From Chthoniobacteraceae bacterium (GTDB taxonomy: Bacteria > Verrucomicrobiota > Verrucomicrobiia > Chthoniobacterales > Chthoniobacteraceae), in contig JANNXQ010000043.1 of NCBI GenBank assembly GCA_031409655.1, forward strand, positions 1 through 45,489: a stretch of DNA of 45,489 nucleotides. The letters are read 5' to 3'. This document shows, one piece after another, positions 26,379-45,489 of the stretch. The notes below the pieces were generated by a model. The model saw only the letters and a list, made by a program, of their open reading frames with translations, was not told where the DNA came from and ran no database searches. Position 1 is the first letter of the stretch; every line of letters starts with the position of its first letter. The translations under genes were made by a program, and so were the position numbers.

Positions 26379-29300
26379 TTACTCCAGCACGAGCACGCCG
26401 CGCATGACGCGCCAGTGGCCGGGGAAGGTGCAGAGGAAGGGGTAGCGTCCGGGGGCGGCGGGGGCGGTGAAGGTGAGTTCGGCTTTTTGTGTGGGCTGCA
26501 CGAGCGGGGTGGCGTGGAGGACTTTCGGTGAGGCGGGGATGTACTGTTTGGTGAGGCCGTCGGGCTGGAGGGCCATGGCGTCGGCAAGGGCGCCGATTTC
26601 TCCCGCGGAGTCGGGCGTGCAGAGGACGAAGTTGTGGGCCATGAGGTCGGGGTTCTCGAAGATGATGCGCACCGGCGCGCCGGCTTTCGCGCGCAGTTCG
26701 GTGGGGGCGAATTTCATCTGATTCGGCACGGCTTGGATGCGCAGTGCGGAGCCGAGGTCGGCGTTCGCTTTCTCCCACGCGGCGGCGAACGCGAGCAGCG
26801 CGGGGGTGTCGCTGGCGGGCTTCACGTCGGCGAGGCGCTGGCCGAGCGGATCGTAAAGACGGACGGCGGGCGGGGCGCCGGCGCGGAGTTTGCGGTAGGC
26901 GATCTCGATGACGTTGAGGCCGGGGCGCAGGTCGAGTTGCACCTGCTGTTCACTGCTCCACTGCGTGTCGCTGGAGAGGAGCTGCACGCCGTTCACGTTC
27001 ACGTCGAGGAAGCCGTGTTTCACGGCGAGGATCGCGGGTTGCGCGGAGCTGGCTTCGACGAAGGTGCGGAAGAGGCCGTCGGGTTTGCCTTTCACCTTGG
27101 GATCGAAAGGCACGCCGTCGCGCAGCCATTGCGTGAGCTGGGTGTCGGGGGCGACTTCGAGCACGGGCACGCTGCGTCCGCGCGTGGACTTCGTGCCGGC
27201 TTTCAGTGAAGCGAGCATGCGCTGCACGGGCGCTTCCTCGGACTTCAGCGCGTGGAGCGCGTGTTCGACCTGCGGCATCGTGACGCGGAGATGCGAGATC
27301 CCGTTCAGCACGGCGATGCGGACGCGCGGGTCGGGATCGGCGGCGGCGGTGTGGAGCAGCGTGGGGGCATCGAGACGGTCGGTTTGAAAACGGATGAGCG
27401 CGACGGCGGCGGCGCGGGTCATCGGGTCCTTTGATCCCAACGCTTCGCCGAGCAGCGCGGGGCGCACTTCGCCTTTCGAGTGCAGGAGCCAGAGCGCCTC
27501 GAGCGCGGCCTGAGCGAACTCCGGCTTCGTGCGATCGAACGCTGCGATCCAGCGCTCCACCTCGGCGGCGGCGTCCACTTTCCGCAGCTCGATCCGCGCA
27601 TGATGGCGCACGAGATCCTGCGGGTGGGTGAGCAGCGCGAGCAGCTCCGGCACGCTCGCGCCTTCGATGCGCGGCCAGTCTTTCACGAGCGGCTTCGCGG
27701 TGTTCACGACGCGCCAGATGCGGCCGTGCTCGTGATCCCACTGCGGGTCGCGCATCGGGTGCTGGGCGTGGCCGATGATGCTGCTGCTGAAGTCCGAGAC
27801 GTAGAGCGCGCCATCGAGCCCGAAGGCGAGATCGACGGGACGGAACGCGGCGTTCGGCGAGGAGAGCAGATCGAGGCGATCCGCGGCGACGACGGCACCG
27901 GCGTCCATCTTTCGGCGCGAGAGGGCGACGAAGTAGTTGCCCAGCAGCGTCGCGCTCACGAAGCCCTGCTGCGCGTCGTCGGGAAAATTCGGGCTGGAGA
28001 CGACGGCGGCGCCGGAGCCTTTGCCGTAGTTCAGCACCGTGGCTTCGCCGTATGGGTGCGCGACGCCGAGCGGCGTCCAGGTGTTCTGCAGTTCGTCGAG
28101 GAAGTGGCCGCCGCCGTACATCTGAAAGAGGTTGCCCCAGCGGTCGAAGGTGATCTTCCACGGGTTCGGCGTCATCGTTTGGTACTCGTTCCAGATGCGG
28201 CCGGTGGCGGGATCGAGCCGGTAGGTGGTCGCGTCGATGCCGCGCACGACGCCGAACGGCGTCTCGAACTGCGAGCGATGGAAGACGCCGTCGCAGAACA
28301 TCACGTGGCCGAGTGGATCGGTGGAGACCATGCCGCCGTGATGCGAGTCGGTGACATCGACGCCGCGGAGCAGTTCGCGCGTCTGGTCGGCGCGTCCGTC
28401 GCCATTCGAGTCGCGCATGAGCAGCAGGCGCGGCTGCGCGGAGACGATCACGCCGTCCTGGTGAAAGGCGATGCCGTCGAGCGCGTCGAGGCCGTCGGCG
28501 AAGATCGTCTGCTTGTCCGCTTTGCCGTCGCGATCGGTGTCTTCGAGGATGAGCAGCTTGTCCTTTGGCACCTCGCCGGGAACGGTGTGCGGCCACGTCG
28601 GCATGGTCACGACCCAGAGCCGTCCGCGCGCATCGAAGGCGATCTGCACGGGGTTTTTCAGGTCGGGAAACTCGGCCTCGGATGCGAATAGATTCAGCGC
28701 GTAACCGTCGGCGACTTTGATCTCGGCCTGCTGTTTGGCGGGCGACTTGATGGTGCCCGCGCCAAAGCGGTCCTTGTTACTCTTTCCCTCGCCGAGCGGC
28801 GGGAGGGTGGGGCGGGGGAAGTCGGTGAATTTCGCGCCCGGCCGGCTCACGATCTCGCGGAGGATGTCGTCCGCTTTTTCGATGAGCTGATGGTAGCGCG
28901 GGATCTCGGCGTCGTATTCGTCCTGGCGCTTGCGCACGCCGAAATAGACGACCGCGTTTTTCGGCCGCACGACCTCGGCGACGAAGCGCGACTTCTGCGC
29001 CGCGGCCTGCGCGACTTCAGTGAGGCGGGCGTCGTCCACCGCTGCGTCGCCGACGAAGGCGCGGGCGATCACGCGCGCCATTTCACGCGAGCCGGCGTCG
29101 TTGAGGTGAAGGCCGCGATCGGTGAGCGGTTCTGAGTGCTTCGCGTATGCCGCGCGGCTGGTGGCGAAAAGATCGACGAACTTGGCGTCGCGCTTCGCCG
29201 CGGCCTCGGCGAGCGCTTTCGCATACAGCTCCACGTGGCGATTGCGTCCATCCTCGATGGCGATGGGCGAGAGCACGACGAACTTCGCGCCCGGATGGAC

Positions 29301-29717
29301 CCGCGCGAGCTGACTGAGATGCGCGTCGAGTTGCGTGCGGAAGTCCGCCAGCCCGGCCTCGCCGGCGAAGGATTCATTCAGTCCGTAGCCCACGACCACG
29401 ACGTTCGCGGGCCACTTCGCGAGCAGGTTCTTCAAGTGCTCGACGTAGCCCTCGGGCCGCTGGCGATTGCCCACTTCATCGCCCGTCCACGCGAGACTGC
29501 GGAAGCGGAGCTTCAGCTCAGGGCGCGCGATTTGGATGCGGGATTCCATCTCCCCATTTTCGCAGAGCCGCTCGACCATGCCGCCGCCGTAGAAGAGGAC
29601 GGCATCATTTGCTTTCAGCGGAATCTCGGCGCGCGCGGCGATCGCGAAGGTGACGAGGCCAAGGATCAGGGCGAGTGCGGTGCGGAGTGGTGCGTTGAAG
29701 GGAATGTGGAGTTGCAT
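26379..29717 (-). CDS. Secreted PVC-type protein: degenerate SGNH domain + beta-propeller + HEAT repeats + C-terminal azurin/auracyanin-like copper domain
   Basis: Start placed at MQLHIPF (signal peptide). GYGLNES and DRGLHLN (SGNH); FASEAEFPDLKNPV, DTDRDGKAD, FRPVDLAFGLDGALYVSDF, DHEHGRIWR; HEAT-like DPDPRVRIA; MAHNFV and CTFPGHWRVM copper ligands; no CxxCH seen. Confidence 0.85.
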   Translation of the reverse strand: MQLHIPFNAPLRTALALILGLVTFAIAARAEIPLKANDAVLFYGGGMVERLCENGEMESRIQIARPELKLRFRSLAWTGDEVGNRQRPEGYVEHLKNLLAKWPANVVVVGYGLNESFAGEAGLADFRTQLDAHLSQLARVHPGAKFVVLSPIAIEDGRNRHVELYAKALAEAAAKRDAKFVDLFATSRAAYAKHSEPLTDRGLHLNDAGSREMARVIARAFVGDAAVDDARLTEVAQAAAQKSRFVAEVVRPKNAVVYFGVRKRQDEYDAEIPRYHQLIEKADDILREIVSRPGAKFTDFPRPTLPPLGEGKSNKDRFGAGTIKSPAKQQAEIKVADGYALNLFASEAEFPDLKNPVQIAFDARGRLWVVTMPTWPHTVPGEVPKDKLLILEDTDRDGKADKQTIFADGLDALDGIAFHQDGVIVSAQPRLLLMRDSNGDGRADQTRELLRGVDVTDSHHGGMVSTDPLGHVMFCDGVFHRSQFETPFGVVRGIDATTYRLDPATGRIWNEYQTMTPNPWKITFDRWGNLFQMYGGGHFLDELQNTWTPLGVAHPYGEATVLNYGKGSGAAVVSSPNFPDDAQQGFVSATLLGNYFVALSRRKMDAGAVVAADRLDLLSSPNAAFRPVDLAFGLDGALYVSDFSSSIIGHAQHPMRDPQWDHEHGRIWRVVNTAKPLVKDWPRIEGASVPELLALLTHPQDLVRHHARIELRKVDAAAEVERWIAAFDRTKPEFAQAALEALWLLHSKGEVRPALLGEALGSKDPMTRAAAVALIRFQTDRLDAPTLLHTAAADPDPRVRIAVLNGISHLRVTMPQVEHALHALKSEEAPVQRMLASLKAGTKSTRGRSVPVLEVAPDTQLTQWLRDGVPFDPKVKGKPDGLFRTFVEASSAQPAILAVKHGFLDVNVNGVQLLSSDTQWSSEQQVQLDLRPGLNVIEIAYRKLRAGAPPAVRLYDPLGQRLADVKPASDTPALLAFAAAWEKANADLGSALRIQAVPNQMKFAPTELRAKAGAPVRIIFENPDLMAHNFVLCTPDSAGEIGALADAMALQPDGLTKQYIPASPKVLHATPLVQPTQKAELTFTAPAAPGRYPFLCTFPGHWRVMRGVLVLE

Positions 29718-29864
29718 GGGGATTGGAGCGGGATGGCGGAGTAGCAAACCTGCGGAGATCGCGCGGTTGAAGGAGGAAGTGCGGCGAAGGCGATCGCTGG
29801 CGAGCACCGGCGCGACACATCAGCATTGTCACTTTCCCGCGAAATGCGGAGCGTGGGCGGCTGC

Positions 29865-31070: not shown

Positions 31071-32282
31071 TCAAAATTGCCAGCCTGCGGCGAACGAAAG
31101 ACCGTGCCCAATGAAGTCGTATTTGCCATCGGCGCTCTGGCCAGCGAGCGAAGGCTGGCTGCCGCGCACCTCCGTTTCGGGGCCGTAACCCAGGTTGTAG
31201 GTCAGACCCAGGCTCCATTGCTCGGTACGGTAAGTGAAGCCGAGGCTGAACACGTGCAGGTCGATATTTGGTATCGCGGGATTGAAATTGCGGTCTGGAG
31301 TGGCGCTCTCGCCGAAAAAGTAACCGGCGCTCACGGAAAATCCGTTGGCAAATTTGAGAGTGGCGCCCACCTTATAAGTCCAGGCAGAGCGCCAATCGAA
31401 GATTTGCGTGGCATCGCCGGAAGGTAGCCGGAAGCGAACGGCGCCAACATCCTCCCAATCTGTCCAATCAGCATTGAATTCAAGATTCCAATTGATGGTA
31501 GGTCGGAAGGAGTAACCGAACATGACATGCTGGGGGAAATCGAACTCGAAGCTCGCGCGTCCATTGCGCAGCGGAAGCGGAATATCACTCTGCACATGGG
31601 CGGAGCCTTCAAAGTTCATGTGGCTCGCGCTCCGATACATGAGGCCGAAAGAATGCTCCGGTGCCGGTTGCCAGAGCAGCCCGGCGGTGAAGCCATAGCT
31701 CCACCCTTCGGCATCGACCCGCAGTTCGTCTCCCGGAAAGGCGATGCCGCGCCGCAGATCCGCGTGGCCATAATTGGCGGTGAGACCGGCAGCGACAGAT
31801 AAGTTACCGCGGAGCTTGAACGCAATGACGGGATTGATGCTGACGAATTGCAGTTGGCTCTTGGTGGCGTAAGTGCGGAAGGGCGACTCGTCCGGCCATT
31901 GCGAGCCAAGACCATAGGGCGAATAGATGCCCAGGCCAACCGTGGCCTGGGCAATGGCTAGGGTGCGCGTGTAAAAGATTTGCGCGATTGTCTGCACGCG
32001 GTCAGGCGTATCCGAAAATTCACCGGTTCCGGGAGCGCGATGGGTCGCGTTGACCATGATGTGATAGGTGCCGAGCTGAAGCTGGCTGCCCTCGAGCTGA
32101 GTAATGCCAGCCGGGTTGTAATAGATCGCAGAAGGCCGGTCGGCAGTTGCGGTAAAAGCTTCGCCGCGTGCGGTGGCTTCCGGGTCTTGATGCAGGACGC
32201 GGATCCCGAGTGCCTGGACGCGCGGCGTGCAAAATAAGGAACAGATTGCCGGAAGGACGACTAATAAGCCTCGGGTTGACAT
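31071..32282 (-). CDS. FadL/OmpP1 family outer-membrane channel for hydrophobic compounds
   Basis: Start placed at MSTRGLLVV (signal peptide); hatch ARGEAFTATADRPSAIYYNPAG; YSPYGL, INPVIAFK; terminal Phe (GWQF). Confidence 0.9.
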   Translation of the reverse strand: MSTRGLLVVLPAICSLFCTPRVQALGIRVLHQDPEATARGEAFTATADRPSAIYYNPAGITQLEGSQLQLGTYHIMVNATHRAPGTGEFSDTPDRVQTIAQIFYTRTLAIAQATVGLGIYSPYGLGSQWPDESPFRTYATKSQLQFVSINPVIAFKLRGNLSVAAGLTANYGHADLRRGIAFPGDELRVDAEGWSYGFTAGLLWQPAPEHSFGLMYRSASHMNFEGSAHVQSDIPLPLRNGRASFEFDFPQHVMFGYSFRPTINWNLEFNADWTDWEDVGAVRFRLPSGDATQIFDWRSAWTYKVGATLKFANGFSVSAGYFFGESATPDRNFNPAIPNIDLHVFSLGFTYRTEQWSLGLTYNLGYGPETEVRGSQPSLAGQSADGKYDFIGHGLSFAAGWQF

Positions 32283-32396
32283 GCCACTGCTCTGGCAAAT
32301 TGTCGCCGAAGAGACAAGATTTTTCTCTGGGAATTTTGGCGCTTGACCTGCCCGCGCGGATTGCGCAGAAAAGTGGAGGTAGATCTCTGGAAGCTT

Positions 32397-33338
32397 ATGG
32401 CTAAATATCAAGTTTACGGCGGGAACTTCATGCTCCCGCACCCCTATAAAATAACGGATGTGAAGGGTTACGGCGTGGCTCTGGATGGCGATATTGGGAA
32501 GCTGAACCGCCTGGTGCATCGCCTGCTCAATCGGGAGAACGATTCCCGAAATTACTACGTGGTGTCGCCGACGGTGCTTTTCACCTTCATGCGGATGGGT
32601 TGCATGCAGTGTGCGGCGATGCCGGAGAGGGGCTTCTTTGTCGAACGCGAGTTGAATGTTACGCTCCTGCTCGCGGCGGTTGATGTCAAAGCGATGACCG
32701 TGCAACTGGCCTGGTATATGCCCTATCTCTGGCTGGATAGCGGCCCGGCGCTGACTGCGGGGCGGGACATCTATGGATTTCCCAAGATGATCGCGGATGT
32801 CGCGCTGCCGGGGTTGGGCGAAGCGGCGGACTTTTCGGCGCACGCCGAGGTATTTCACGCGCCGCTCCCATCGGTGGCGATCAAGCGGGAGATTTTCCGC
32901 GCCTGCCGCAGCGCGGGGGGGCTCGTGGAGCAACAGAGTAACGCGACCAATGCGGGCGAGGCTCTGGGCATCCTCTTGAAACAGGTGCTGGAGATAGACC
33001 CGATTCTAGTCCAGATGCTCGGCTTTGCGCTGCCGACCATTGAATTGAACAAGTTGCGCATGGCCTTCATGCGCCAGCTTCCGAGTATCTCCAACTTCGA
33101 AGAGACGAGCTTTCGTTCCACGGCAGAAGCGCCCTTCTCCGTCACGCTGCGCAGCGCAGGTTTGCTCAAAGGGCCTTATGCCGTTTTCATTCCGAAACAC
33201 GAAAGCGTGAAGCTGGCGGAGGAACTCGGCATCCCGAGTGATCCCCAGGGAAACGTGGTGGCAGAAGCAAAGGCGGCCTACCACATGGACTTCGATTTTG
33301 TGCTCGGTCGGGGCAGGGACGTCTGGGTGGAAACCTAA
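32397..33338 (+). CDS. Acetoacetate decarboxylase superfamily protein
   Basis: ERELNV and PYLWLDSGPALTAGRDIYGFPK, containing the family Schiff-base Lys motif; start placed at MAKYQV. Confidence 0.75.
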   Translation: MAKYQVYGGNFMLPHPYKITDVKGYGVALDGDIGKLNRLVHRLLNRENDSRNYYVVSPTVLFTFMRMGCMQCAAMPERGFFVERELNVTLLLAAVDVKAMTVQLAWYMPYLWLDSGPALTAGRDIYGFPKMIADVALPGLGEAADFSAHAEVFHAPLPSVAIKREIFRACRSAGGLVEQQSNATNAGEALGILLKQVLEIDPILVQMLGFALPTIELNKLRMAFMRQLPSISNFEETSFRSTAEAPFSVTLRSAGLLKGPYAVFIPKHESVKLAEELGIPSDPQGNVVAEAKAAYHMDFDFVLGRGRDVWVET

Positions 33339-33355
33339 CCCCGAGCATTGCGAAG

Positions 33356-36300
33356 ATGCCCGAGCCTGCTGCGAGTCTTGTCGCTGGGGGCGCGCAGAGT
33401 GAGGCGTTTGCGGCGTATGTTTCGCCGCTGCTGATCGAGCGGATTGCCTGCGACCGCCCGGTTTTCGGCCAACCGTTTGCGGCCGAGTTCGAGGGGGCTG
33501 TGCTTTTTTCCGACATCACCGGATTCACCGGGCTAACGGAGCGGATCGAGGCCAGCGGCCCCGATGGGGTCGAGCGGCTCTCGGGGCAGTTGAACGCGTG
33601 CTTTTCCCGGCTCATCCAGATCGTCGATGAACATGGGGGAACGGTGGTGAAATTTGCCGGCGATGCCTTGCTGGCGGTATGGCCGGCCGAGGAAGTTTGT
33701 CTGGAAGAGGCCGCCCGGTGCGCGGCGAATTGTGCCCGCGCGATCGTGACCGCCCCCACTGCGGAGGCTTCTTTTGCGGTGAAGGCGAGCGTGGGTGCGG
33801 GTGGCGTGGTCCATGCAATCTTCGGCGGCACGGGAGGGCGCTGGGTCTCGATGATCGGGGGCGCGGCCACCGAGGCGGCCCGCGCGGCGATGACGCGGTG
33901 TCGCGTCGGTGAGGTCGCGCTCCCGCCTGCCCGGAGCGTGGGCGTGGGCGCGGCGATGGTGACGGCGCGGCCAAAGCGGCTTAGGGTGCTCCCGGGCGAT
34001 GAGTGGCTGCATGCGCACCTTCCGACCGCGGTGCTCGATCGGATCGCCGCAGACCAGATGGGCTGGATGGCGGAATTTCGGCGGGTGAGCGTCCTTTTTA
34101 TCCAAGTGCTTGGCGTGGAGTTGCGCGCCGCGAGCGACCTTGAGGTCGTCCAGCGCGCCTTGGTCACAATCCAGGCAGAAGTCGCGCGCTGCGGCGGTTC
34201 GATCGACGACACTGGTGAGGACCACAGCGCGCTGGTAGTGGTCGCGGCCTTTGGTCTGCCGGGCGCCACGCATGGCGACGATGCCGCACGGGCGACCCGG
34301 GCCGCGCTCGGCATCGTGGCGGCCTCGCGAGGAGCGGGGCTGCGGGCGGGAATTGGAGTTGGCACGGGGCGGCTTTTCTGCGGGGCGATCGGCAGCGCGG
34401 CGGTGCGCTCATACTCGATGGTGGGCGACGCGATGAATCGCGGCGCGCGGCTGATGCGCCTGGCGCACGACGAGGTGTTGTGCGACGACGAGACGCGCCG
34501 CTCCGCTGCGCGCCATTTGCATTTCGAGTTCCTGCGCCACGAGGTTTTGCAAGGGCGTCGGGGCACGGTGGCGATCCATCGCCCGAGTGAGCGCCGCTGG
34601 CAGGCACCCGCGGCGGGTGGCCTGATCGGCCGCGATGCAGAGCGGCACCTTTTTCGCGAACGTCTGGCGAGCCTGGCCTCGAGCGGAATCGGCGGTGTGA
34701 TCATCCTTGAAGGGGAGGCTGGCATCGGGAAATCCGCCTTGCTGGCGGAATTGCGCGCGGTGGCACGATCCAGCGGCGTCGCTTTTTACCAAGGTGGGGC
34801 GGAGGCGATCGACGCTGCATCCACCTATCACGCATGGCAGCCAGTCTTTCATGAGTTGGTCGGGATCACGGCGGGCATGGATGCGCGCGCCCGCGCGACG
34901 GCCTTGCTCGGCATGCTGGCGGCGAAAGAGGTCGCTGAGCCACCGCTCGCACCGCTTCTTAATCCGATCTTTGGGACGCATCTCCCGGAGAACGCGATCA
35001 CCGCGGAGATGGCGGCGCAGTCGCGCGCCGAGGCGGTGACGCGCATGCTGGTGCAATTGCTCGGGCAGGCTGCCGTGGCTGCCCCTTTGGTGGTGGCAGT
35101 TGAAGATTGCCATTGGCTGGATTCGGCGTCGCTGGCGTTGGCGCTGGCACTCCTGCGCAGCGTGCCGCGCTTCCTGCTCGTCCTCGTGACGCGTCCGCTT
35201 GGCGCGGATGAGCCGGAAACCTGGGCGGCATTGCGGGCGGTCGCCGGGAGCGAGCGCCTGCGGCTCGGCCCGCTCCTTTCTGCGGAGACCGTCATGCTGG
35301 CCCGCCGCCGCCTAGGCGTGCCGCAGCTCGATCCGGCGCTCGTGCGCCTGGTCGGCGAGCGCAGCGGAGGTAACCCTTTTTTCACCGAAGAACTCTGCCA
35401 CGCGCTGCGCGACAGCGGCCACCTGCGCATCGCAGGCGGGCGCTGCCGCCTAGAGCGAGGGAGTTCCGATGAGGGGCCGCTCGATCTTCCGGACACCGTG
35501 CAGGGCGTGGTCAGCGCGCGCATCGACCGGCTCTCGGCGCGCGAGCGGCTCGCCATCAAGGTGGCGAGTGTGAATGGGCGCGCCTTCACGCTGCGGATGC
35601 TGGAATCGGTGCATCCCGTCGAAGCGGATCGACCGCATCTGGGCGAGTGCGTCAAGCGGCTGGTCGCGCTGGATTTCGCCGCGCCGCTCGTGACCCCGGA
35701 GGGCGAGACGTTTGAATTCAAGCACTCCATCGTGCAGGAAGTGGCCTACGGGCAGCTCACCTTCTCTCAACGCCGGCGACTGCACCAGCGCGTTGCCGAG
35801 TGGATCGAGCGGGAAAAGCCGGACGAGGACGCCCTACTCGCACGCCATTGGTCGGAAGCCGAGGTGCCCGAGCGGGCACTGCATTATCTCGACCGCGCTG
35901 GAGGCGAGGCCATCCGCCGCTTTGCCAACCGCGAGGCGGCCGGCTTCCTGATGCGCGCGATCACGCTGGCGCGATCGAGCGGCGCGACGGTCGATCGGCT
36001 CACGCAAGGCCGCTGGCACCGGCAGCTCGGCGAGGCGCGCTTTCACCTCGGACGGCTTCCGGAGTGCCGGAGGGATCTGACCGAAGGAGCGCGGCTGCTC
36101 GGCTGGCCCGTGCCGGGCGGCGCGCTGGCGCTGCCCGTGGCCATCGGGCGGCAGTTCGCGCGGCGGGTCTGGCCGCGGCCGCCGCGGCCGTGCGAGCCTG
36201 GGCAGCGGGAGGGTCTGATCGAGGCGCTTCACTGCTACCAACTGCTCGGGGAAGTGGCCTACTTTACCAATGATCTGGCGACTTGCGGATTTTGCATTTT

Positions 36301-37366
36301 CCATGGAGCGAATCTTGCGGAGTCACTTGGCCCCTCTCCGGCCCTGGCCCGCTTGTATGGCGGCATCGCGGTGCTCGCCGGGATGGCATCGGAGCACCTC
36401 GGTGAGGCGTATCTGCGTCGCGCCACCCGGGCCGTCGAGGCCTGCGACCATCCCTTGACCACCGCCTATTCCGGCATCGTCACCGCGATTTATCTCGGAG
36501 GATTTGGTGCGTGCAGACGGCTGCAACCTCCCCTGCGGACGGGCTGTGAAATCTTCCGCCGCTACGGTGATGGACGCCGCCTTGAGGAGTCGCTCATTCA
36601 CCTCATCTACACCCACTTGCACTGTGGAGACTATGCCGCTTGCGCGCGCCTGCTCGAGGAAATGGGCACCTCCGCGGAAAGCCGCGACGACACCCAAACG
36701 CGCGGCTGGGTGCGCCTCCTGCGCGCGCTCGTCGCGCTGCCCACGGACGGGCCGCACGCGGCGATCGAAATTCTCGGCGGCGATTACGAGACGGGCCTCG
36801 ATGCACTCACCGTTACCGCCATGCACGCCACCGCCGGCATTGCGCGGTGGCGCCTGGGCGATGCCGAACGCGCGCGGCGTCACGCTCTCGCCGCCTTCGC
36901 GCGCAACGAGCAACAGCCGCCCAAGAGTTACGTGATGCTCCTTTACATTGGTTGGGTGGCCGAAGTGTTCCTCGAGCTTGTGCAGCACGCCCCGGCGGAA
37001 TCTCCCCGGCGCCGGAGCGATGCCGACCTTGCGCGCCGGGCTTGCGCTGCGCTGCGCCGATTTGCCAGGTTTTTCCCCGTGGCCCGCGCCCGCGCGGCGC
37101 TCTGCGATGGCCGCTGGCAGGCCATCCGTGGACGGCGCGCCGCGGCCAAGCGCTGCTGGTGGCGGGCGCTCGAGGCCGCGGAGCGCTTCGAGCTACTGCC
37201 GGAGCAAGCGATGGCGCACGGCTTCCTCGGGCAGTGGGGGGACGAGGCTCATCGCACAGCGGCCGCGGCGATTTGGGAGCGCCTCGGCGCGCGCGCAGAG
37301 CTTGACTCCTGGCGGTCTTCCGCGCATAGGATTTTCCCACCCGGAACTCGATCCCAGATTTTATGA
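33356..37366 (+). CDS. Twin class III nucleotidyl cyclase + STAND (AAA_16-like) NTPase + helical/TPR-like region (soluble adenylyl cyclase-like architecture)
   Basis: C1: VLFSDITGFT, VVKFAGDA. C2: FGLP, GIGVGTG, VGDAMNRGARLM. LIGRDAE, Walker A GEAGIGKS, Walker B VVAVEDCHW, GNPFF, ARIDRL, FKHSIVQEVAY, LARHW. Confidence 0.9.
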   Translation: MPEPAASLVAGGAQSEAFAAYVSPLLIERIACDRPVFGQPFAAEFEGAVLFSDITGFTGLTERIEASGPDGVERLSGQLNACFSRLIQIVDEHGGTVVKFAGDALLAVWPAEEVCLEEAARCAANCARAIVTAPTAEASFAVKASVGAGGVVHAIFGGTGGRWVSMIGGAATEAARAAMTRCRVGEVALPPARSVGVGAAMVTARPKRLRVLPGDEWLHAHLPTAVLDRIAADQMGWMAEFRRVSVLFIQVLGVELRAASDLEVVQRALVTIQAEVARCGGSIDDTGEDHSALVVVAAFGLPGATHGDDAARATRAALGIVAASRGAGLRAGIGVGTGRLFCGAIGSAAVRSYSMVGDAMNRGARLMRLAHDEVLCDDETRRSAARHLHFEFLRHEVLQGRRGTVAIHRPSERRWQAPAAGGLIGRDAERHLFRERLASLASSGIGGVIILEGEAGIGKSALLAELRAVARSSGVAFYQGGAEAIDAASTYHAWQPVFHELVGITAGMDARARATALLGMLAAKEVAEPPLAPLLNPIFGTHLPENAITAEMAAQSRAEAVTRMLVQLLGQAAVAAPLVVAVEDCHWLDSASLALALALLRSVPRFLLVLVTRPLGADEPETWAALRAVAGSERLRLGPLLSAETVMLARRRLGVPQLDPALVRLVGERSGGNPFFTEELCHALRDSGHLRIAGGRCRLERGSSDEGPLDLPDTVQGVVSARIDRLSARERLAIKVASVNGRAFTLRMLESVHPVEADRPHLGECVKRLVALDFAAPLVTPEGETFEFKHSIVQEVAYGQLTFSQRRRLHQRVAEWIEREKPDEDALLARHWSEAEVPERALHYLDRAGGEAIRRFANREAAGFLMRAITLARSSGATVDRLTQGRWHRQLGEARFHLGRLPECRRDLTEGARLLGWPVPGGALALPVAIGRQFARRVWPRPPRPCEPGQREGLIEALHCYQLLGEVAYFTNDLATCGFCIFHGANLAESLGPSPALARLYGGIAVLAGMASEHLGEAYLRRATRAVEACDHPLTTAYSGIVTAIYLGGFGACRRLQPPLRTGCEIFRRYGDGRRLEESLIHLIYTHLHCGDYAACARLLEEMGTSAESRDDTQTRGWVRLLRALVALPTDGPHAAIEILGGDYETGLDALTVTAMHATAGIARWRLGDAERARRHALAAFARNEQQPPKSYVMLLYIGWVAEVFLELVQHAPAESPRRRSDADLARRACAALRRFARFFPVARARAALCDGRWQAIRGRRAAAKRCWWRALEAAERFELLPEQAMAHGFLGQWGDEAHRTAAAAIWERLGARAELDSWRSSAHRIFPPGTRSQIL

Positions 37367-39528
37367 GCAAAAAAATCGCAATCCTCGGCGGAGGCATCGG
37401 TGGCTGCGCGGCCGCCTACTGGCTCACCCATCCCGATCAAAAGGGGCAATATGAAGTGACCATTTTTCAGCAGGGCTGGCGCCTCGGAGGCAAAGGTGCG
37501 AGCGGGCGCAACCTCGATGCCGCCATGGGCAATCGCAGCGAGGAGCACGGGCTGCACATCTGGCTGGGCTTTTACCAGAATGCCTTTCACCTCCTGCGCG
37601 AAGCCTACCAGCATATGGGGGCCAATGGTGACTTCACCACCATCGCCACGGCCTTCACCCCGCAGCGCGAGGGGATCATTGCGCAGCGCCGGGGAACCAC
37701 GCGCTCGGCGGTGCCGCTAAGCGGCTGTCTGCCGGCCCTGGGCGGACTCGGGCGCCTGTTGAGCCGAGGTGCCGCGGGACGCGCCGCGCCAGACTGGGAT
37801 TTCTGGGTTTACGACTTTCCACGCTATCACCAGACGCCGGTCGGCGATCCGGTCGAGCCAGGCGATGACCACCCAGTGCCGGGTTTGCCTGAATACATCT
37901 TCCGCGCCTTCAAATGGGTCGTGATCAATGCGAAGACGCTGCTCGCAGTCGTCACGGATCCCGGCCCGCTGCTCGCGATCATCAATGTCCTTGAGGCGCT
38001 CTCCGGCACCCTGGAGGCATTGCCGTCCGATCCCGCTCAGATCGACAAACTCGTGCTTAAAGCGGCGGTCGATGCCCTGCGCACCCTGCGAGATCTTCTC
38101 CATCTCATTATTAGAGGCGACGAGGTGTTTCCAGGCGTGAACCGCGAGCGCGAACGCCTCTACCATGTGCTCGACCTCGCGCTGACCTGCGTCATCGGCG
38201 CTTACGATGGCCGCGTGCTCGAAGCGCCGTATGGCTTCGACAAGCTCGATGACTGCGAGTTTCGCGAGTGGCTCCGGCAGAACCACGCGTTTTATTCCAC
38301 CCTCGACTCCGGCCCAATCAAAGGGCTCTACGACCTGCCCTTTGCCTACAAGGATGGAAAGACGGGGGAAGCCGGCGCAAACCTCGCCGCGGGCGTCGCC
38401 GTGCGCAGCCTAACGCGCATCTTCTTCGGCTACAAAAATGCGTTCGTTTTCAAAATGAACGCCGGCATGGGCGAGACCGTTTTCACGCCCATTTACGAAC
38501 TCCTGAAAGCGCGCAAGGTAAAGTTTGAATTCTTCCACCGCGTCACCGATCTCGGGCTCTCGGACGACGGTCGGGCGCTTGCTAATTTCTCCGTCGAACG
38601 CCAGGCGATCCCGCTCGGTGGCACCTATGATCCACTGCACGCAGTGGATCTGCCGAGTGGCCGGAAGCTACGCGTCTGGCCCGACCGCCCACTCGCCGCG
38701 CGGCTCGTGGAGGGCACGGTCCTGCCGGCGCTCTCCGAGCCCAGTTTTGAGTCTTCCTGGTGCGCCGTGCCGGCAGTGGACGCGCGGAAGATCGAGGTGG
38801 GGCCGGACAAAGAATTTGAGACCTTGGTCCTGGCGATCTCGATCGCGGGGCTCCGCCACGTCGCTCCCGCACTCCTCCGGGCGGACCCCGCATGGAGGCG
38901 CATGCTCGACGAAGTAAAAACCATCCGCACCCAGTGCGCGCAGCTCTGGATGAAGCCAGACACGCAAGGACTCGGCTGGAATCGTCCCGACTCCCATGAG
39001 CCGCCGCTCGTGGATGCCTACATCGACCCGCTCAATACCTGGATGGATCAGAGCGTGATCCTCCAGACGGAGACCTGGCCCGCAAACCGCAAGCCCGGCT
39101 ACCTCGCCTATTTTTGCGGCCCGATGCCGGACGACGATGGGGAGCAGCCCTTTGGCAGTGCCGCCTATCCTGCCAGTCAGACGGCGGCGGCCACCGCCAG
39201 CATGGAGGCTTTTTTCCAAACGGCGATCCGGCCGATCTGGCCCCGCGCCGTCACCAACTCCGGCGCGCTCGATCCCGCCAAGATCTTCGGGATGTACTAC
39301 CGCGCAAATATCGACCCGAGCGAACGCTACGTCCTGAGTGTCGCCGGCAGCACGCGTTTCCGCATCCCGTCCGACAAGTCGGGATTTGGCAATCTTTACC
39401 TCGCTGGCGACTGGACTCGCAATGGCCTTAATGTCGGCTGTGTCGAAGCTGCGGCTATCTCCGGCGCGCAAGCTGCGCGCGGCATCAGTGGCCTGCCCGT
39501 CTCCATCCCTGGCGAAACGGATTTCTAG
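37363..39528 (+). CDS. FAD/NAD(P)-binding oxidoreductase, carotenoid desaturase/amine oxidase-like superfamily
   Basis: ILGGGIGG, RLGGKGAS, EHGLHIWLGFYQNAF, GMGETVFTP, LYLAGDWT...GCVEAAAISG; ATGA overlap with the cyclase stop. Confidence 0.85.
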   Translation: MSKKIAILGGGIGGCAAAYWLTHPDQKGQYEVTIFQQGWRLGGKGASGRNLDAAMGNRSEEHGLHIWLGFYQNAFHLLREAYQHMGANGDFTTIATAFTPQREGIIAQRRGTTRSAVPLSGCLPALGGLGRLLSRGAAGRAAPDWDFWVYDFPRYHQTPVGDPVEPGDDHPVPGLPEYIFRAFKWVVINAKTLLAVVTDPGPLLAIINVLEALSGTLEALPSDPAQIDKLVLKAAVDALRTLRDLLHLIIRGDEVFPGVNRERERLYHVLDLALTCVIGAYDGRVLEAPYGFDKLDDCEFREWLRQNHAFYSTLDSGPIKGLYDLPFAYKDGKTGEAGANLAAGVAVRSLTRIFFGYKNAFVFKMNAGMGETVFTPIYELLKARKVKFEFFHRVTDLGLSDDGRALANFSVERQAIPLGGTYDPLHAVDLPSGRKLRVWPDRPLAARLVEGTVLPALSEPSFESSWCAVPAVDARKIEVGPDKEFETLVLAISIAGLRHVAPALLRADPAWRRMLDEVKTIRTQCAQLWMKPDTQGLGWNRPDSHEPPLVDAYIDPLNTWMDQSVILQTETWPANRKPGYLAYFCGPMPDDDGEQPFGSAAYPASQTAAATASMEAFFQTAIRPIWPRAVTNSGALDPAKIFGMYYRANIDPSERYVLSVAGSTRFRIPSDKSGFGNLYLAGDWTRNGLNVGCVEAAAISGAQAARGISGLPVSIPGETDF

Positions 39529-39531
39529 AGC

Positions 39532-40698
39532 GTGTCATTGAAGTTCGACGTAATCGTAGTCGGGGGCGGGCCCGCCGGCAGTTTCGCCGCGTGGCTGCTC
39601 GCCCGACAGGGTCGGCGGGTGGCACTTTTGGATCGGGAAAATTTTCCGCGCGACAAAGTTTGCGGCGGCGGACTTTCCCGCAAGGCGATCGAGCTTCTGC
39701 CCTTCGATCTCTCGCCGCTTATCCATGCCCGGGTGCGGGAGGTGTCGCTGCAGTTTGCGGGTTGCGAGAGCGTCGAGTTCGACGCGGGCGCGGGCGCGGG
39801 CTGCACGGTGGTGCGCCGCGAGTTCGACCATTTTCTGGTCGCGCAGGCGATCGCGGCTGGGGTGCATTTTTTTCCCGCGACGCCGGCCTTGCGCATCGAA
39901 GCCGAAGCGGGCGGCGTGCGGGTGGCCTCGATCCAGCACACCTTCCATGGAGCATGGCTGGTCGGCGCGGATGGAGTCGGCAGCCGCGTGCGCCGGCAAA
40001 TCTTTGGGCCCAATGGGGTGCGCTACGTTCCGGCGATCGAGATGCTCGTCGAACCTGACCCCGCGACCATGAAGCGCTTCGCTGGGCGGGCTCTTTTGGA
40101 TATGGGAGGAATGACCCAGGGTTATGGCTGGGTTTTTCCCAAGCGCGACCACCTCAATGTGGGGGTGTTTTCAATCTTCGGCGGGCGCGGCATCCGTGCC
40201 GATCTCGATCGTTTTGTGGCCCACGATCCGGCGCTGGCCCGCGCCAGGGTGCGCGCCCGCGCTGGCCACAATATCCCGCTGGCGAGCCAGTGTGAGTGTG
40301 AGCGGGGTCGCGTCTGGTTGCTTGGCGACGCCGCAGGATTTGCGGACTCGATGTTCGGTGAAGGGATCTTTTATGCCTTGCAGAGCGCGGCCCTCGCGGC
40401 GCGCTGCTTTGCCCAATCTGGCGGCGCGCCCGCGTGTGGTGATTACGCCCGCCTGGTGCGCAAGCATCTGCTGCCAGAGTTTCGTGCAGCCCATGTCCTG
40501 GCTCGCGCATTTTTCCGGTGGCCGCGTTTTGCCTATCGGCGGATCACCGCGCGCGCGCGAATGCTGGGATGGTTCTCGGGATTGATCACCGGTGAGGTCA
40601 GCTATCGGCAATGTCTCAGCCGCTCATTGGTCACCGCGCCCTGGTGGTTGCTGAGCAACGTTACCGCCCGCCCTTCAGCGAGCCCACGGCCGTTGTAG
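39532..40698 (+). CDS. Geranylgeranyl reductase family flavoprotein
   Basis: VGGGPAGS, FPRDKVCGGG, RREFD, GADGVGS, GYGWVFPK, GDAAG, GEGIFYA; GTG start 3 nt after the upstream stop. Confidence 0.88.
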   Translation: MSLKFDVIVVGGGPAGSFAAWLLARQGRRVALLDRENFPRDKVCGGGLSRKAIELLPFDLSPLIHARVREVSLQFAGCESVEFDAGAGAGCTVVRREFDHFLVAQAIAAGVHFFPATPALRIEAEAGGVRVASIQHTFHGAWLVGADGVGSRVRRQIFGPNGVRYVPAIEMLVEPDPATMKRFAGRALLDMGGMTQGYGWVFPKRDHLNVGVFSIFGGRGIRADLDRFVAHDPALARARVRARAGHNIPLASQCECERGRVWLLGDAAGFADSMFGEGIFYALQSAALAARCFAQSGGAPACGDYARLVRKHLLPEFRAAHVLARAFFRWPRFAYRRITARARMLGWFSGLITGEVSYRQCLSRSLVTAPWWLLSNVTARPSASPRPL

Positions 40699-44275: not shown

Positions 44276-45034
44276 GTGGATCCCTCTGAGCCAAACGCAC
44301 CGCAGCCAACGGGACCGCCGGGAATCTTCCTGACCACGCGCTGGAGCCGCGTGATTCTGGCGGGCGATTCGACGGCGGCGGAAGCGCACGAGGCGTTGTC
44401 GAGTCTGTGCCGGGATTATTGGCGGCCGTTGTATCACTTTGCGCGGCGGAAGGGGCACTCGCCGGAGGATGCGCAGGATTTCACGCAGGGATTCATCGCC
44501 GGGTTGCTGGCGCAAAATGGGATCGCGCGGGCGGACCGGGAGCGCGGGCGGTTTCGCACGTTTTTGCTTTCGGCATTTTGCCACTATCTCGCCAATCAGC
44601 ATCGCGATCGCTCCGCACAGAAGCGCGGCGGGGAGCATGCGATGCTCTCCCTGGACGACCCTGAGGCGGGCTTTGCGCAGCAGGCGAGCGATGGCGTGAC
44701 TCCGGAGTTGGAATACGAACGCAGTTGGGCGCTGGCGCTTTTGGAGCGGGTAATGGCGCGACTGCGGGAGGAGTATGTGCAGGCGGAACGGCTCGCGCTT
44801 TTTGAGAAGATCCAACCGCATCTCTCGGGTGCCGCGGGGCGTCCTGGGTATGCACGACTCGGGGAGGAGTTGGGGATGAGCGAGGGCGCGATCACGGTGG
44901 CGATGCATCGGATGCGGCGGCGCTACGGCGAGCTGTTGCGGGAGGAGATCGGGGCGACGGTGGCGACGCCGAAGGAGGTCGAGGACGAGCTGCGGCATTT
45001 GATGAACGTGGTGTCGGGTGGCCCCGTGCGATGA
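44276..45034 (+). CDS. ECF-type sigma-70 factor
   Basis: FLTTRWS, LCRDYWRPLY, EDAQDFTQGF, GRFRTFL, region 4 LGMSEGAITVAMHRMRRRY; GTG start. Confidence 0.88.
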   Translation: MDPSEPNAPQPTGPPGIFLTTRWSRVILAGDSTAAEAHEALSSLCRDYWRPLYHFARRKGHSPEDAQDFTQGFIAGLLAQNGIARADRERGRFRTFLLSAFCHYLANQHRDRSAQKRGGEHAMLSLDDPEAGFAQQASDGVTPELEYERSWALALLERVMARLREEYVQAERLALFEKIQPHLSGAAGRPGYARLGEELGMSEGAITVAMHRMRRRYGELLREEIGATVATPKEVEDELRHLMNVVSGGPVR

Positions 45035-45084
45035 TCTTTTTCTGAAAGGTTTTGCGGCTGACCGGTAAGAACTGGCTGAACCCA

Positions 45085-45489
45085 ATGCCATCAACGAACC
45101 CACCCGAACCGCCGAACGTGTGCGGCGTATGCGGCACGCCGCTCAACGCGGGGCGGCTCGGCGCGCAGTGTCCGCGGTGTCTGCTGAGCCTCGGGAGCAG
45201 CTTCGGGCTGCCGGGCGATGAGGTGGAAAGCGACGCGCTGCTCGATCCGCATCAGGTGCGCAGTTTCGGTGACTACGAGTTGCTGGAGGAGATCGCGCGC
45301 GGCGGGATGGGCGTCGTTTATCGCGCGCGGCAGATCAGTCTGAATCGCGAGGTGGCGGTGAAGATGATCCTCGCCGGCGAACTCGCGGGGAAGGAATCGC
45401 TGCGGATGTTTCAGCGCGAGGCACACGCGGCCGCGAACCTGCATCACCCGAACATCGTGCCGGTGTATGAAATCGGGGAGCACGAGACG
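45085..45489 (+). CDS. Hanks-type Ser/Thr protein kinase with N-terminal Zn-ribbon, partial (runs off window)
   Basis: Translated by hand: [34 protein letters not shown]...[23 protein letters not shown]...VAVKMI...FQREA...[11 protein letters not shown]. Confidence 0.92.

Follow-up and report, generated by a model that had tools for sequence, protein, structure and literature searches.

What is a signalling protein of the soluble adenylyl cyclase type doing among genes for enzymes of a lipid-modifying kind? This question is raised by a cassette of five genes on contig JANNXQ010000043.1 of a Chthoniobacteraceae bacterium (assembly GCA_031409655.1), which was analysed as a stretch of 45,489 nucleotides, here called the window. 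The cassette encodes a FadL-type outer-membrane channel, a protein of the acetoacetate decarboxylase (ADC) superfamily, a STAND protein with twin class III cyclase domains, a large flavoenzyme and a flavoprotein of the geranylgeranyl reductase (GGR) family. A preliminary description, made from the sequence alone, had proposed that these genes import or make a lipid or isoprenoid signal, convert it and read it out as a cyclic nucleotide. We found that the ADC-like protein, the STAND protein and the flavoenzyme form a three-gene core whose linkage is real and recurs across many bacteria.

Linkage of the three-gene core

Two sets of loci were compared: 13 loci from 12 genomes of the family, and the best 80 of 585 metagenome loci, including a subset of 21 long loci that extend for 4 kb or more to each side. 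The metagenome counts were made with hidden Markov models (HMMs) built on the same loci; when representatives were scanned with Pfam, AAA_16 was upheld in most of them. Among the 13 family loci, ADC was present at 11, STAND at 11 and FadL at 4, and neither GGR nor polyprenyl synthase was found. The gene order of the window, ADC–STAND–flavoenzyme, was repeated in eight genomes. At the 80 metagenome loci we counted ADC at 43, STAND or its sensor region at 30 and polyprenyl synthase at 16; for the long loci, the flavoenzymes of which are at most 66% identical, the corresponding numbers were 20, 14 and 12. Five of 12 plasmid records were also inspected (Azospirillum, Qingshengfaniella, Mycobacterium, Catenovulum and Rufibacter), and the flavoenzyme had an adjacent STAND gene in four, ADC in three, FadL in one (Azospirillum) and a prenyl synthase in one.

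The background is low. In the window's genome there is just one other STAND gene of this type, and the stretch within 10 kb of it makes up 0.3% of the genome; genome G462 has three strong AAA_16 matches in 6.6 Mb, one of which is linked to the module. Even at an assumed background of 20%, the presence of STAND at 14 of 21 long loci gives a binomial p of 5e-6, which overstates the significance, as related loci are not independent. The association was also seen in the reverse direction: when the sensor region of the STAND protein was found in other genomes of the family (E<1e-60, 10 genomes), the flavoenzyme was encoded in all ten and clustered with the sensor in eight.

In addition, the parts are found fused. 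An ADC domain is joined to the N-terminus of the flavoenzyme in 64 of the best 120 homologues listed. In a survey of 25 long flavoenzyme homologues, 15 were tandem double flavoenzymes, and in six (P0136–P0141, five of them scanned) the flavoenzyme is joined to an additional flavoprotein of the HpnE/ZDS type. P0142 combines flavoenzyme, two cyclases, STAND and TPR in a single chain, P0145 is a STAND–flavoenzyme fusion, and P0143 and P0144, each on one contig, have the arrangement flavoenzyme–TPR-S–trypsin, in which a sensor role for TPR-S is suggested by the Pfam name. The co-occurrence expected in the preliminary description was thus borne out for flavoenzyme, ADC and STAND, which recur across phyla and fuse; FadL accompanies them at a minority of loci, and GGR is not conserved with the core.

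The sensor and its outputs

The STAND protein has 1,336 residues. Its two tandem class III cyclase domains, most like those of human soluble adenylyl cyclase (sAC; E=4e-26), are followed by a STAND NTPase with an intact Walker A (GEAGIGKS) and Walker B (VEDCHW) motif. The C-terminal part is labelled TPR from Pfam matches in close relatives, not in the window protein itself. This sensor region belongs to a family of 1,393 representatives at E<=1e-10, and among 112 long relatives twin cyclases were present in 75 and a kinase in 16. The outputs attached to the STAND partners of the module comprise the twin cyclase, a single cyclase, a Ser/Thr kinase, a kinase with GAF and histidine kinase, and TIR. 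Since other outputs can take the place of the cyclase, it is the sensor, rather than the cyclic nucleotide, that the domain comparisons mark as the constant element of the module.

Two TIR-STAND genes (L070:5162-8002 and L079:13933-16773) adjoin a locus of the prenyl-synthase type, and these loci appear to be duplicates. In genomes G369, G385 and G389 a conserved protein of 304–318 residues is encoded directly after distant twin-cyclase STAND genes (L127:10156-11112, L128:10846-11760 and L129:7649-8563); it was weakly Coq4-like in the two cases tested (E=0.002–0.008) and matched no solved structure. On contig C33 of G379 (L123/L124) a FadL gene is followed by four tandem twin-cyclase STAND–TPR paralogues, with Gln at the position of sAC K334 and no enzyme genes, and this may possibly be a receptor array. 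The reuse of the sensor type with other lipid-flavoured partners supports a hydrophobic ligand, and the enzymes are not obligatory, since weaker sensor paralogues have other partners or none.

For the cyclase residues we used as a reference Table 1 of PMC12867704, which covers the metal, bicarbonate-site, pyrophosphate and phosphate residues of sAC. Window residues D53, K99, D103, K143, R176, N361 and R365 correspond to sAC D47, K95, D99, K144, R176, N412 and R416. The metal-binding Asp pair and the catalytic Asn and Arg (D53, D103, N361 and R365) are each kept at nine of nine cassette loci, as is the Walker A Lys; the predicted bicarbonate-site equivalents are kept at seven (K95 type) and eight (R176 type) of the nine. 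The adenine-reading K334 of sAC is replaced by D285, so the window protein lacks the adenine-recognising Lys of a cAMP-specific adenylyl cyclase, and the FDKG loop of sAC reads EDHS. Over 24 twin-cyclase relatives the K334 position is occupied by K in 3, D in 5, N in 7, Q in 5, G in 3 and A in 1. Catalysis looks intact from these residues, and cAMP as the product is not assured because Asp285 stands in place of Lys334. By analogy with E118 of Pucsar, an acidic base-reading residue (bioRxiv 10.64898/2026.08.12.744502), D285 suggests a preference for guanine. Genome-wide, 13 matches to cyclic nucleotide (cNMP)-binding domains were found.

The enzyme pair

The AlphaFold model of the flavoenzyme (pLDDT 92) has an FAD-binding fold of the amine-oxidase type. 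The closest fold was that of rice phytoene desaturase (PDS; 5mog, Foldseek E=5e-17), with Z 27.2, against 23.1 for the entry ranked second, and an rmsd of 3.1 over 452 residues; PDS, the closest solved structure, is only 17% identical in sequence. HpnE was the best NCBIfam match, below threshold, and the flavoenzyme missed the cut-offs for HpnE (54 vs 283 bits), ZDS (30 vs 622) and PDS (23 vs 569). Assignment to the oleate hydratases (MCRA) was likewise rejected (PF06100, 16.2 bits; gathering score, 23). The family is large, with at least 4,535 homologue clusters at E<=1e-40 (7,995 candidates scored), and uncharacterised: its members are named as uncharacterised or NAD(P)-binding proteins only, and a characterised member was not found among them. 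Two copies have broken frames or assembly errors; at L006:9028-11516 the flavoenzyme is spread over several frames, and at L012:9334-11343 (the G021 copy) the final 57 or so residues lie in another frame.

The ADC-like protein was also modelled well (pLDDT 91) and has the ADC fold (3bgt; Foldseek E=3e-14, target TM-score 0.72). All 24 Foldseek matches at E<=1e-3 were ADC, MppR, Sbi aldolase-dehydratase or Swit_4259 entries, among which MppR and the aldolase-dehydratases have been solved as Schiff-base complexes. K130 aligns with the first Lys of GRELWGFPKK in 3bgt, within the motif GRE..G.PK; this is the Lys that forms the Schiff base. Lys130 is at least 90% conserved among 24 homologues; in an alignment of 139 rows, which includes some loci twice, 122 retain it. 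By score the protein is not a true acetoacetate decarboxylase, with 19 bits against the NCBIfam model PRK02265, which has a cut-off of 150. A predicted complex of the sensor region and the ADC-like protein scored 0.00, which carries no weight either way.

FadL, GGR and the flavoenzyme clades

The FadL protein of the window is 73% identical to the copy in the G429 cassette and at most 49% identical to all other family matches, including the second FadL of its own genome. In G429 the gene is divergent from the module in the same arrangement as in the window. Apart from the family loci, FadL occurs at one of the 80 metagenome loci and in Azospirillum; TonB receptors are encoded at five of the 80, so that one or the other is present at six. 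The identities and counts mark FadL as a dedicated but optional copy of the cassette. The GGR protein exceeds the cut-off of TIGR02032 (201.9 vs 158.8 bits) and none of those of the narrower BchP/ChlP, MenJ and DGGGPL models. Its best homologues in the family are 35–37% identical and have no module genes nearby. A conserved five-gene pathway that includes GGR was rejected, with GGR at none of the 13 family loci and one of the 80 metagenome loci (L061); a second match to the GGR HMM, at L043, proved to be a hydroxylase.

In a FastTree phylogeny built from the 91 flavoenzyme domains that cover 500 profile positions or more, shorter pieces being excluded, all prenyl-synthase loci fell in one clade (support 0.986). 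The window belongs to a separate clade (support 1.0) with ADC, the twin-cyclase STAND and no synthase. This split, together with the FadL of the cassette, is compatible with a putative division into producers and listeners.

From their gene content, the prenyl-synthase loci may represent an unknown terpenoid pathway. They often encode, in addition, long proteins with ADC and a reductase of the saccharopine dehydrogenase type, and 16 of the 80 metagenome loci have a conserved hypothetical gene with no Pfam match, usually between flavoenzyme and polyprenyl synthase (L061:8557-9264 and similar). Other neighbours of flavoenzyme copies include a squalene/phytoene synthase between ADC and flavoenzyme (L036:8843-9898), a P450 (L022:12149-13543) and a carotenoid-biosynthesis protein (L043:12795-13874).

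Proposed mechanism and alternatives

The reading that we favour, with a little less than even confidence, is that the enzyme pair converts a hydrophobic, probably isoprenoid, compound, and that the STAND protein binds the product and switches on its twin cyclase. The flavoenzyme would oxidise or desaturate the substrate to an unsaturated carbonyl, which the ADC-fold partner could capture in a Schiff base with Lys130 and then isomerise, hydrate or cleave by a retro-aldol reaction. The converted product would then be bound by the C-terminal repeat domain of STAND, as the inducer is by MalT, a ligand-activated STAND protein with a TPR sensor that provides a precedent (PMC6468293). Loci of the sister clade would make the backbone by means of polyprenyl synthase, and the window cassette, which lacks a synthase, would import it through its own FadL; GGR may trim the substrate in the window lineage alone. 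The cyclic nucleotide, which may be cGMP or some nucleotide other than cAMP since Asp285 replaces the adenine-reading Lys, would act on cNMP-binding proteins elsewhere in the genome. For the lipid or isoprenoid nature of the signal, as claimed in the preliminary description, the pointers are indirect and consist of the PDS fold, the prenyl synthases of the sister clade, the squalene/phytoene synthase at L036, the carotenoid-biosynthesis protein at L043 and the HpnE/ZDS-like fusions.

Several observations weigh against this proposal. The polyprenyl synthase is confined to the other flavoenzyme clade and absent from all 13 family loci, so the case for an isoprenoid substrate is borrowed from the sister clade, and as 12 of the 21 long loci carry the synthase, these loci are not independent of one another. 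The PDS-type fold is common to amine and amino-acid oxidases. Seven of the 21 long loci are without this type of STAND, four of them with histidine-kinase-type neighbours and one with a TIR protein; in G342 and G378 the close STAND genes lie on a different contig from the flavoenzyme, and distant sensor paralogues (26–31% identity) occur without the enzymes. Each of the STAND fusions was seen on one contig and may be an assembly artefact. The loss of K334 could equally mean weak or no cyclase activity, and PADLOC and Pfam found no cNMP effector among the five cassette genes.

It could instead be the incoming substrate, possibly an unsaturated fatty acid, that STAND senses, the enzymes being catabolic or detoxifying, as in a MalT-like regulon whose uptake and breakdown functions are induced by the cyclic nucleotide and a CRP-type regulator, or serving to end the signal. 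We consider this rather unlikely. Crp-type or cNMP-binding genes adjoin the module at L008, L052, L091, L117 and L122, G379 has its FadL and four STAND genes with no enzymes, an oleate hydratase is coupled with an ADC-family protein in the conjugated linoleic acid (CLA) pathway (PMC9241672), and the flavoenzyme has weak similarities to MCRA. The MCRA match is, however, far under the cut-off (16 vs 23 bits) and PDS ranks first by fold; the polyprenyl synthase loci look biosynthetic rather than catabolic, no recurrent beta-oxidation or CoA-ligase cluster was found among the neighbours, and the fusion of enzyme and sensor better fits a hand-over of product. Such fusions, and the compact gene order, would also agree with control of STAND by direct contact, in which the enzymes act as a MalY-like inhibitor or a guarded decoy and their state is read rather than a diffusible product. 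MalT is sequestered by MalY (PMC10427625), and the identities of the parts co-vary pairwise (rho 0.71–0.89, nine loci), although shared descent alone explains this. As one enzyme family occurs with several STAND types and with histidine kinases, a diffusible product is the simpler explanation. The catalytic motifs are also retained, and we regard control by contact as improbable.

The exchange of effectors recalls immune systems, in which the enzyme pair would make an alarm molecule, or be the monitored target, upon phage infection or attack, and STAND would fire an effector. TIR-STAND at L070 and L079, TIR neighbours at L043 and L063, NB-ARC at L057, nSTAND1-WD40 at L069 and the flavoenzyme–TPR-S–trypsin fusions agree with this, as do the patchy distribution and the empty site in a congener described below, and an immune function has been proposed for a clade of STAND-fused cyclases (section 5 of bioRxiv 10.64898/2026.08.12.744502). 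The preprint names NACHT and AP-ATPase fusions, however, and not sAC-like ones. PADLOC gave only partial matches to the PycC cyclase domain, a toxic or cNMP-binding effector is absent from the cassette, the flanks of the family loci viewed looked housekeeping and not like defence islands, as judged from starts of open reading frames, and the presence of importers dedicated to the module in the outer membrane suggests a small molecule from outside. A conflict role is in our opinion distinctly unlikely. That the genes merely travel together with no functional link, as the unlinked GGR genes elsewhere and the STAND copies apart from enzymes might suggest, is highly improbable in view of the recurrence across phyla, the fusions and the reciprocal co-occurrence of sensor and flavoenzyme.

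Conversion of a hydrophobic compound and sensing of the product may be extended to a widespread, hitherto undescribed bacterial system of lipid hormones, which is a rather doubtful proposal. The enzyme pair would make an isoprenoid-derived carbonyl signal read by NLR-like STAND–TPR receptors with plug-in outputs, namely an sAC-like cyclase making a non-cAMP nucleotide, a kinase, TIR or a protease; synthase loci would be the producers and FadL loci the listeners.

Relation to known systems

The module of enzyme pair and STAND is real, conserved and apparently undescribed, built of known parts and most like a sensor system of the MalT type. Like E. coli MalT it has a STAND protein with a TPR-type sensor, presumably activated by a small molecule and tied to pathway enzymes and transporters (PMC6468293, PMC10427625). 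It differs in its outputs (cyclase, kinase, TIR or histidine kinase instead of DNA binding), in a ligand of probably hydrophobic nature and in enzymes that bear no relation to those of the maltose system. Mammalian sAC (ADCY10) and bacterial sAC-like proteins have the same tandem C1/C2 cyclases followed by a STAND NTPase, with the Table 1 residues kept, whereas the window protein departs from sAC at K334 and FDKG, and its gene sits inside an enzyme cassette. PDS, ZDS and HpnE resemble the flavoenzyme in fold, PDS being the best, and their N-terminal GLH and C-terminal flavin motifs align with it. Carotenoid and squalene amino oxidases usually act in pairs (PMC9907078), and the tandem and fused flavoenzyme copies of the module are reminiscent of this; the window enzyme differs by its length of 721 residues, its large inserts, its ADC-fold partner and its sensor.

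The CLA hydratase is FAD-dependent. In the Lactiplantibacillus CLA pathway (CLA-HY together with CLA-DH and CLA-DC) a hydratase and an ADC-family protein similarly act on an unsaturated lipid (PMC9241672), but by its score the window flavoenzyme does not belong to the oleate hydratases, the short-chain dehydrogenase/reductase is absent from the cassette and the CLA pathway is without a STAND sensor. Pycsar and Pucsar also use a class III cyclase whose base specificity depends on few residues (bioRxiv 10.64898/2026.08.12.744502), but only the cyclase domain matched, in part (E>=2e-9), and the window cyclase is fused to STAND. Assignment to Pycsar was rejected, as PADLOC and Pfam revealed no adjacent effector with a cyclic nucleotide-binding domain and TIR or with transmembrane segments.

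The remark in the preliminary description that the gene set matches no characterised pathway agrees with our literature searches, which listed no description of it (subscription journals and Table S1 of bioRxiv 10.64898/2026.08.12.744502 were outside their scope). It is not described in the excerpts of PMC9241672, PMC7159879, PMC12867704, PMC9907078, PMC5703498, PMC6468293, PMC10427625 or the above preprint, and the words 'oxidoreductase' and 'prenyl' are both absent from the full text of PMC7159879. The module offers a functional handle on the large flavoenzyme family and a candidate source of ligand for STAND cyclases of the sAC type. It is not known what full-length sAC senses through its C-terminal region, and the analogous question can be addressed directly in a small bacterial cassette; a lipid hormone, if real, would give the STAND and repeat region of such a protein its first ligand. 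From the altered base-reading residue an unusual cyclic nucleotide is to be expected, and the variants with TIR or a protease would connect lipid chemistry to possible immunity.

Layout, insertion and distribution

The coordinates of the cassette are given in Table 1. The co-oriented quartet with a divergent FadL gene, reported in the preliminary description, agrees with the sequence in its genes and all four junctions: a 17-nt gap between ADC and STAND, an ATGA overlap at 37363–37366 between STAND and flavoenzyme, and a 3-nt gap before GGR, besides the divergent region. The five assigned protein families were upheld by Pfam and NCBIfam. A promoter scan of the divergent region found no sigma-70-like sites, matches resembling terminators were uninformative, and no RNA data were listed among the sequencing runs.

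Table 1. Features of the cassette in the window
Feature	Position	Strand	Match and status
FadL/OmpP1 outer-membrane channel	31071..32282	-	PF03349 E=3e-51; extra cassette-linked copy, optional part
114-bp divergent intergenic region	32283..32396	.	between FadL and ADC-like genes; from sequence
ADC-superfamily protein, Lys130 (GRDIYGFPK)	32397..33338	+	PF06314 E=1.5e-8; core
sAC-like twin class III cyclase – STAND NTPase – helical/TPR-type sensor	33356..37366	+	PF13191 + PF00211; core
721-aa flavoenzyme, phytoene-desaturase/HpnE-like fold	37363..39528	+	NAD_binding_8/Amino_oxidase; core
GGR-family flavoprotein	39532..40698	+	TIGR02032 GG-red-SF; local accessory

The block is flanked by a glycosyltransferase-like gene and a GHMP kinase gene, which we take to be ispE-like, 10.1 kb apart in the window. 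In G002, of the same genus, these two genes lie about 70 nt apart on a single contig, leaving an empty site, and because they nearly abut there, the block is likely an insertion; in the remaining two congeners another gene adjoins the GHMP kinase. No boundary repeats marking an insertion were seen among the repeats listed. Of 151 family genomes, 13, including the window's own, encode the flavoenzyme; it was seen in none of three congeners, in none of the 300 further genomes sampled from the phylum and in 3 of 301 genomes of a second phylum sampled; a scan of genome contigs with a single protein returned two loci only.

Outside the inserted block, the window encodes a 1,142-residue protein (26379-29807, minus strand) in which a GDSL-like domain is combined with DUF7133, HEAT and cupredoxin domains. 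At the end of the window (44276-45489, plus strand) a sigma-factor-like gene is followed by a Ser/Thr kinase-like gene that is truncated at the contig end, both labels being read from the translation.

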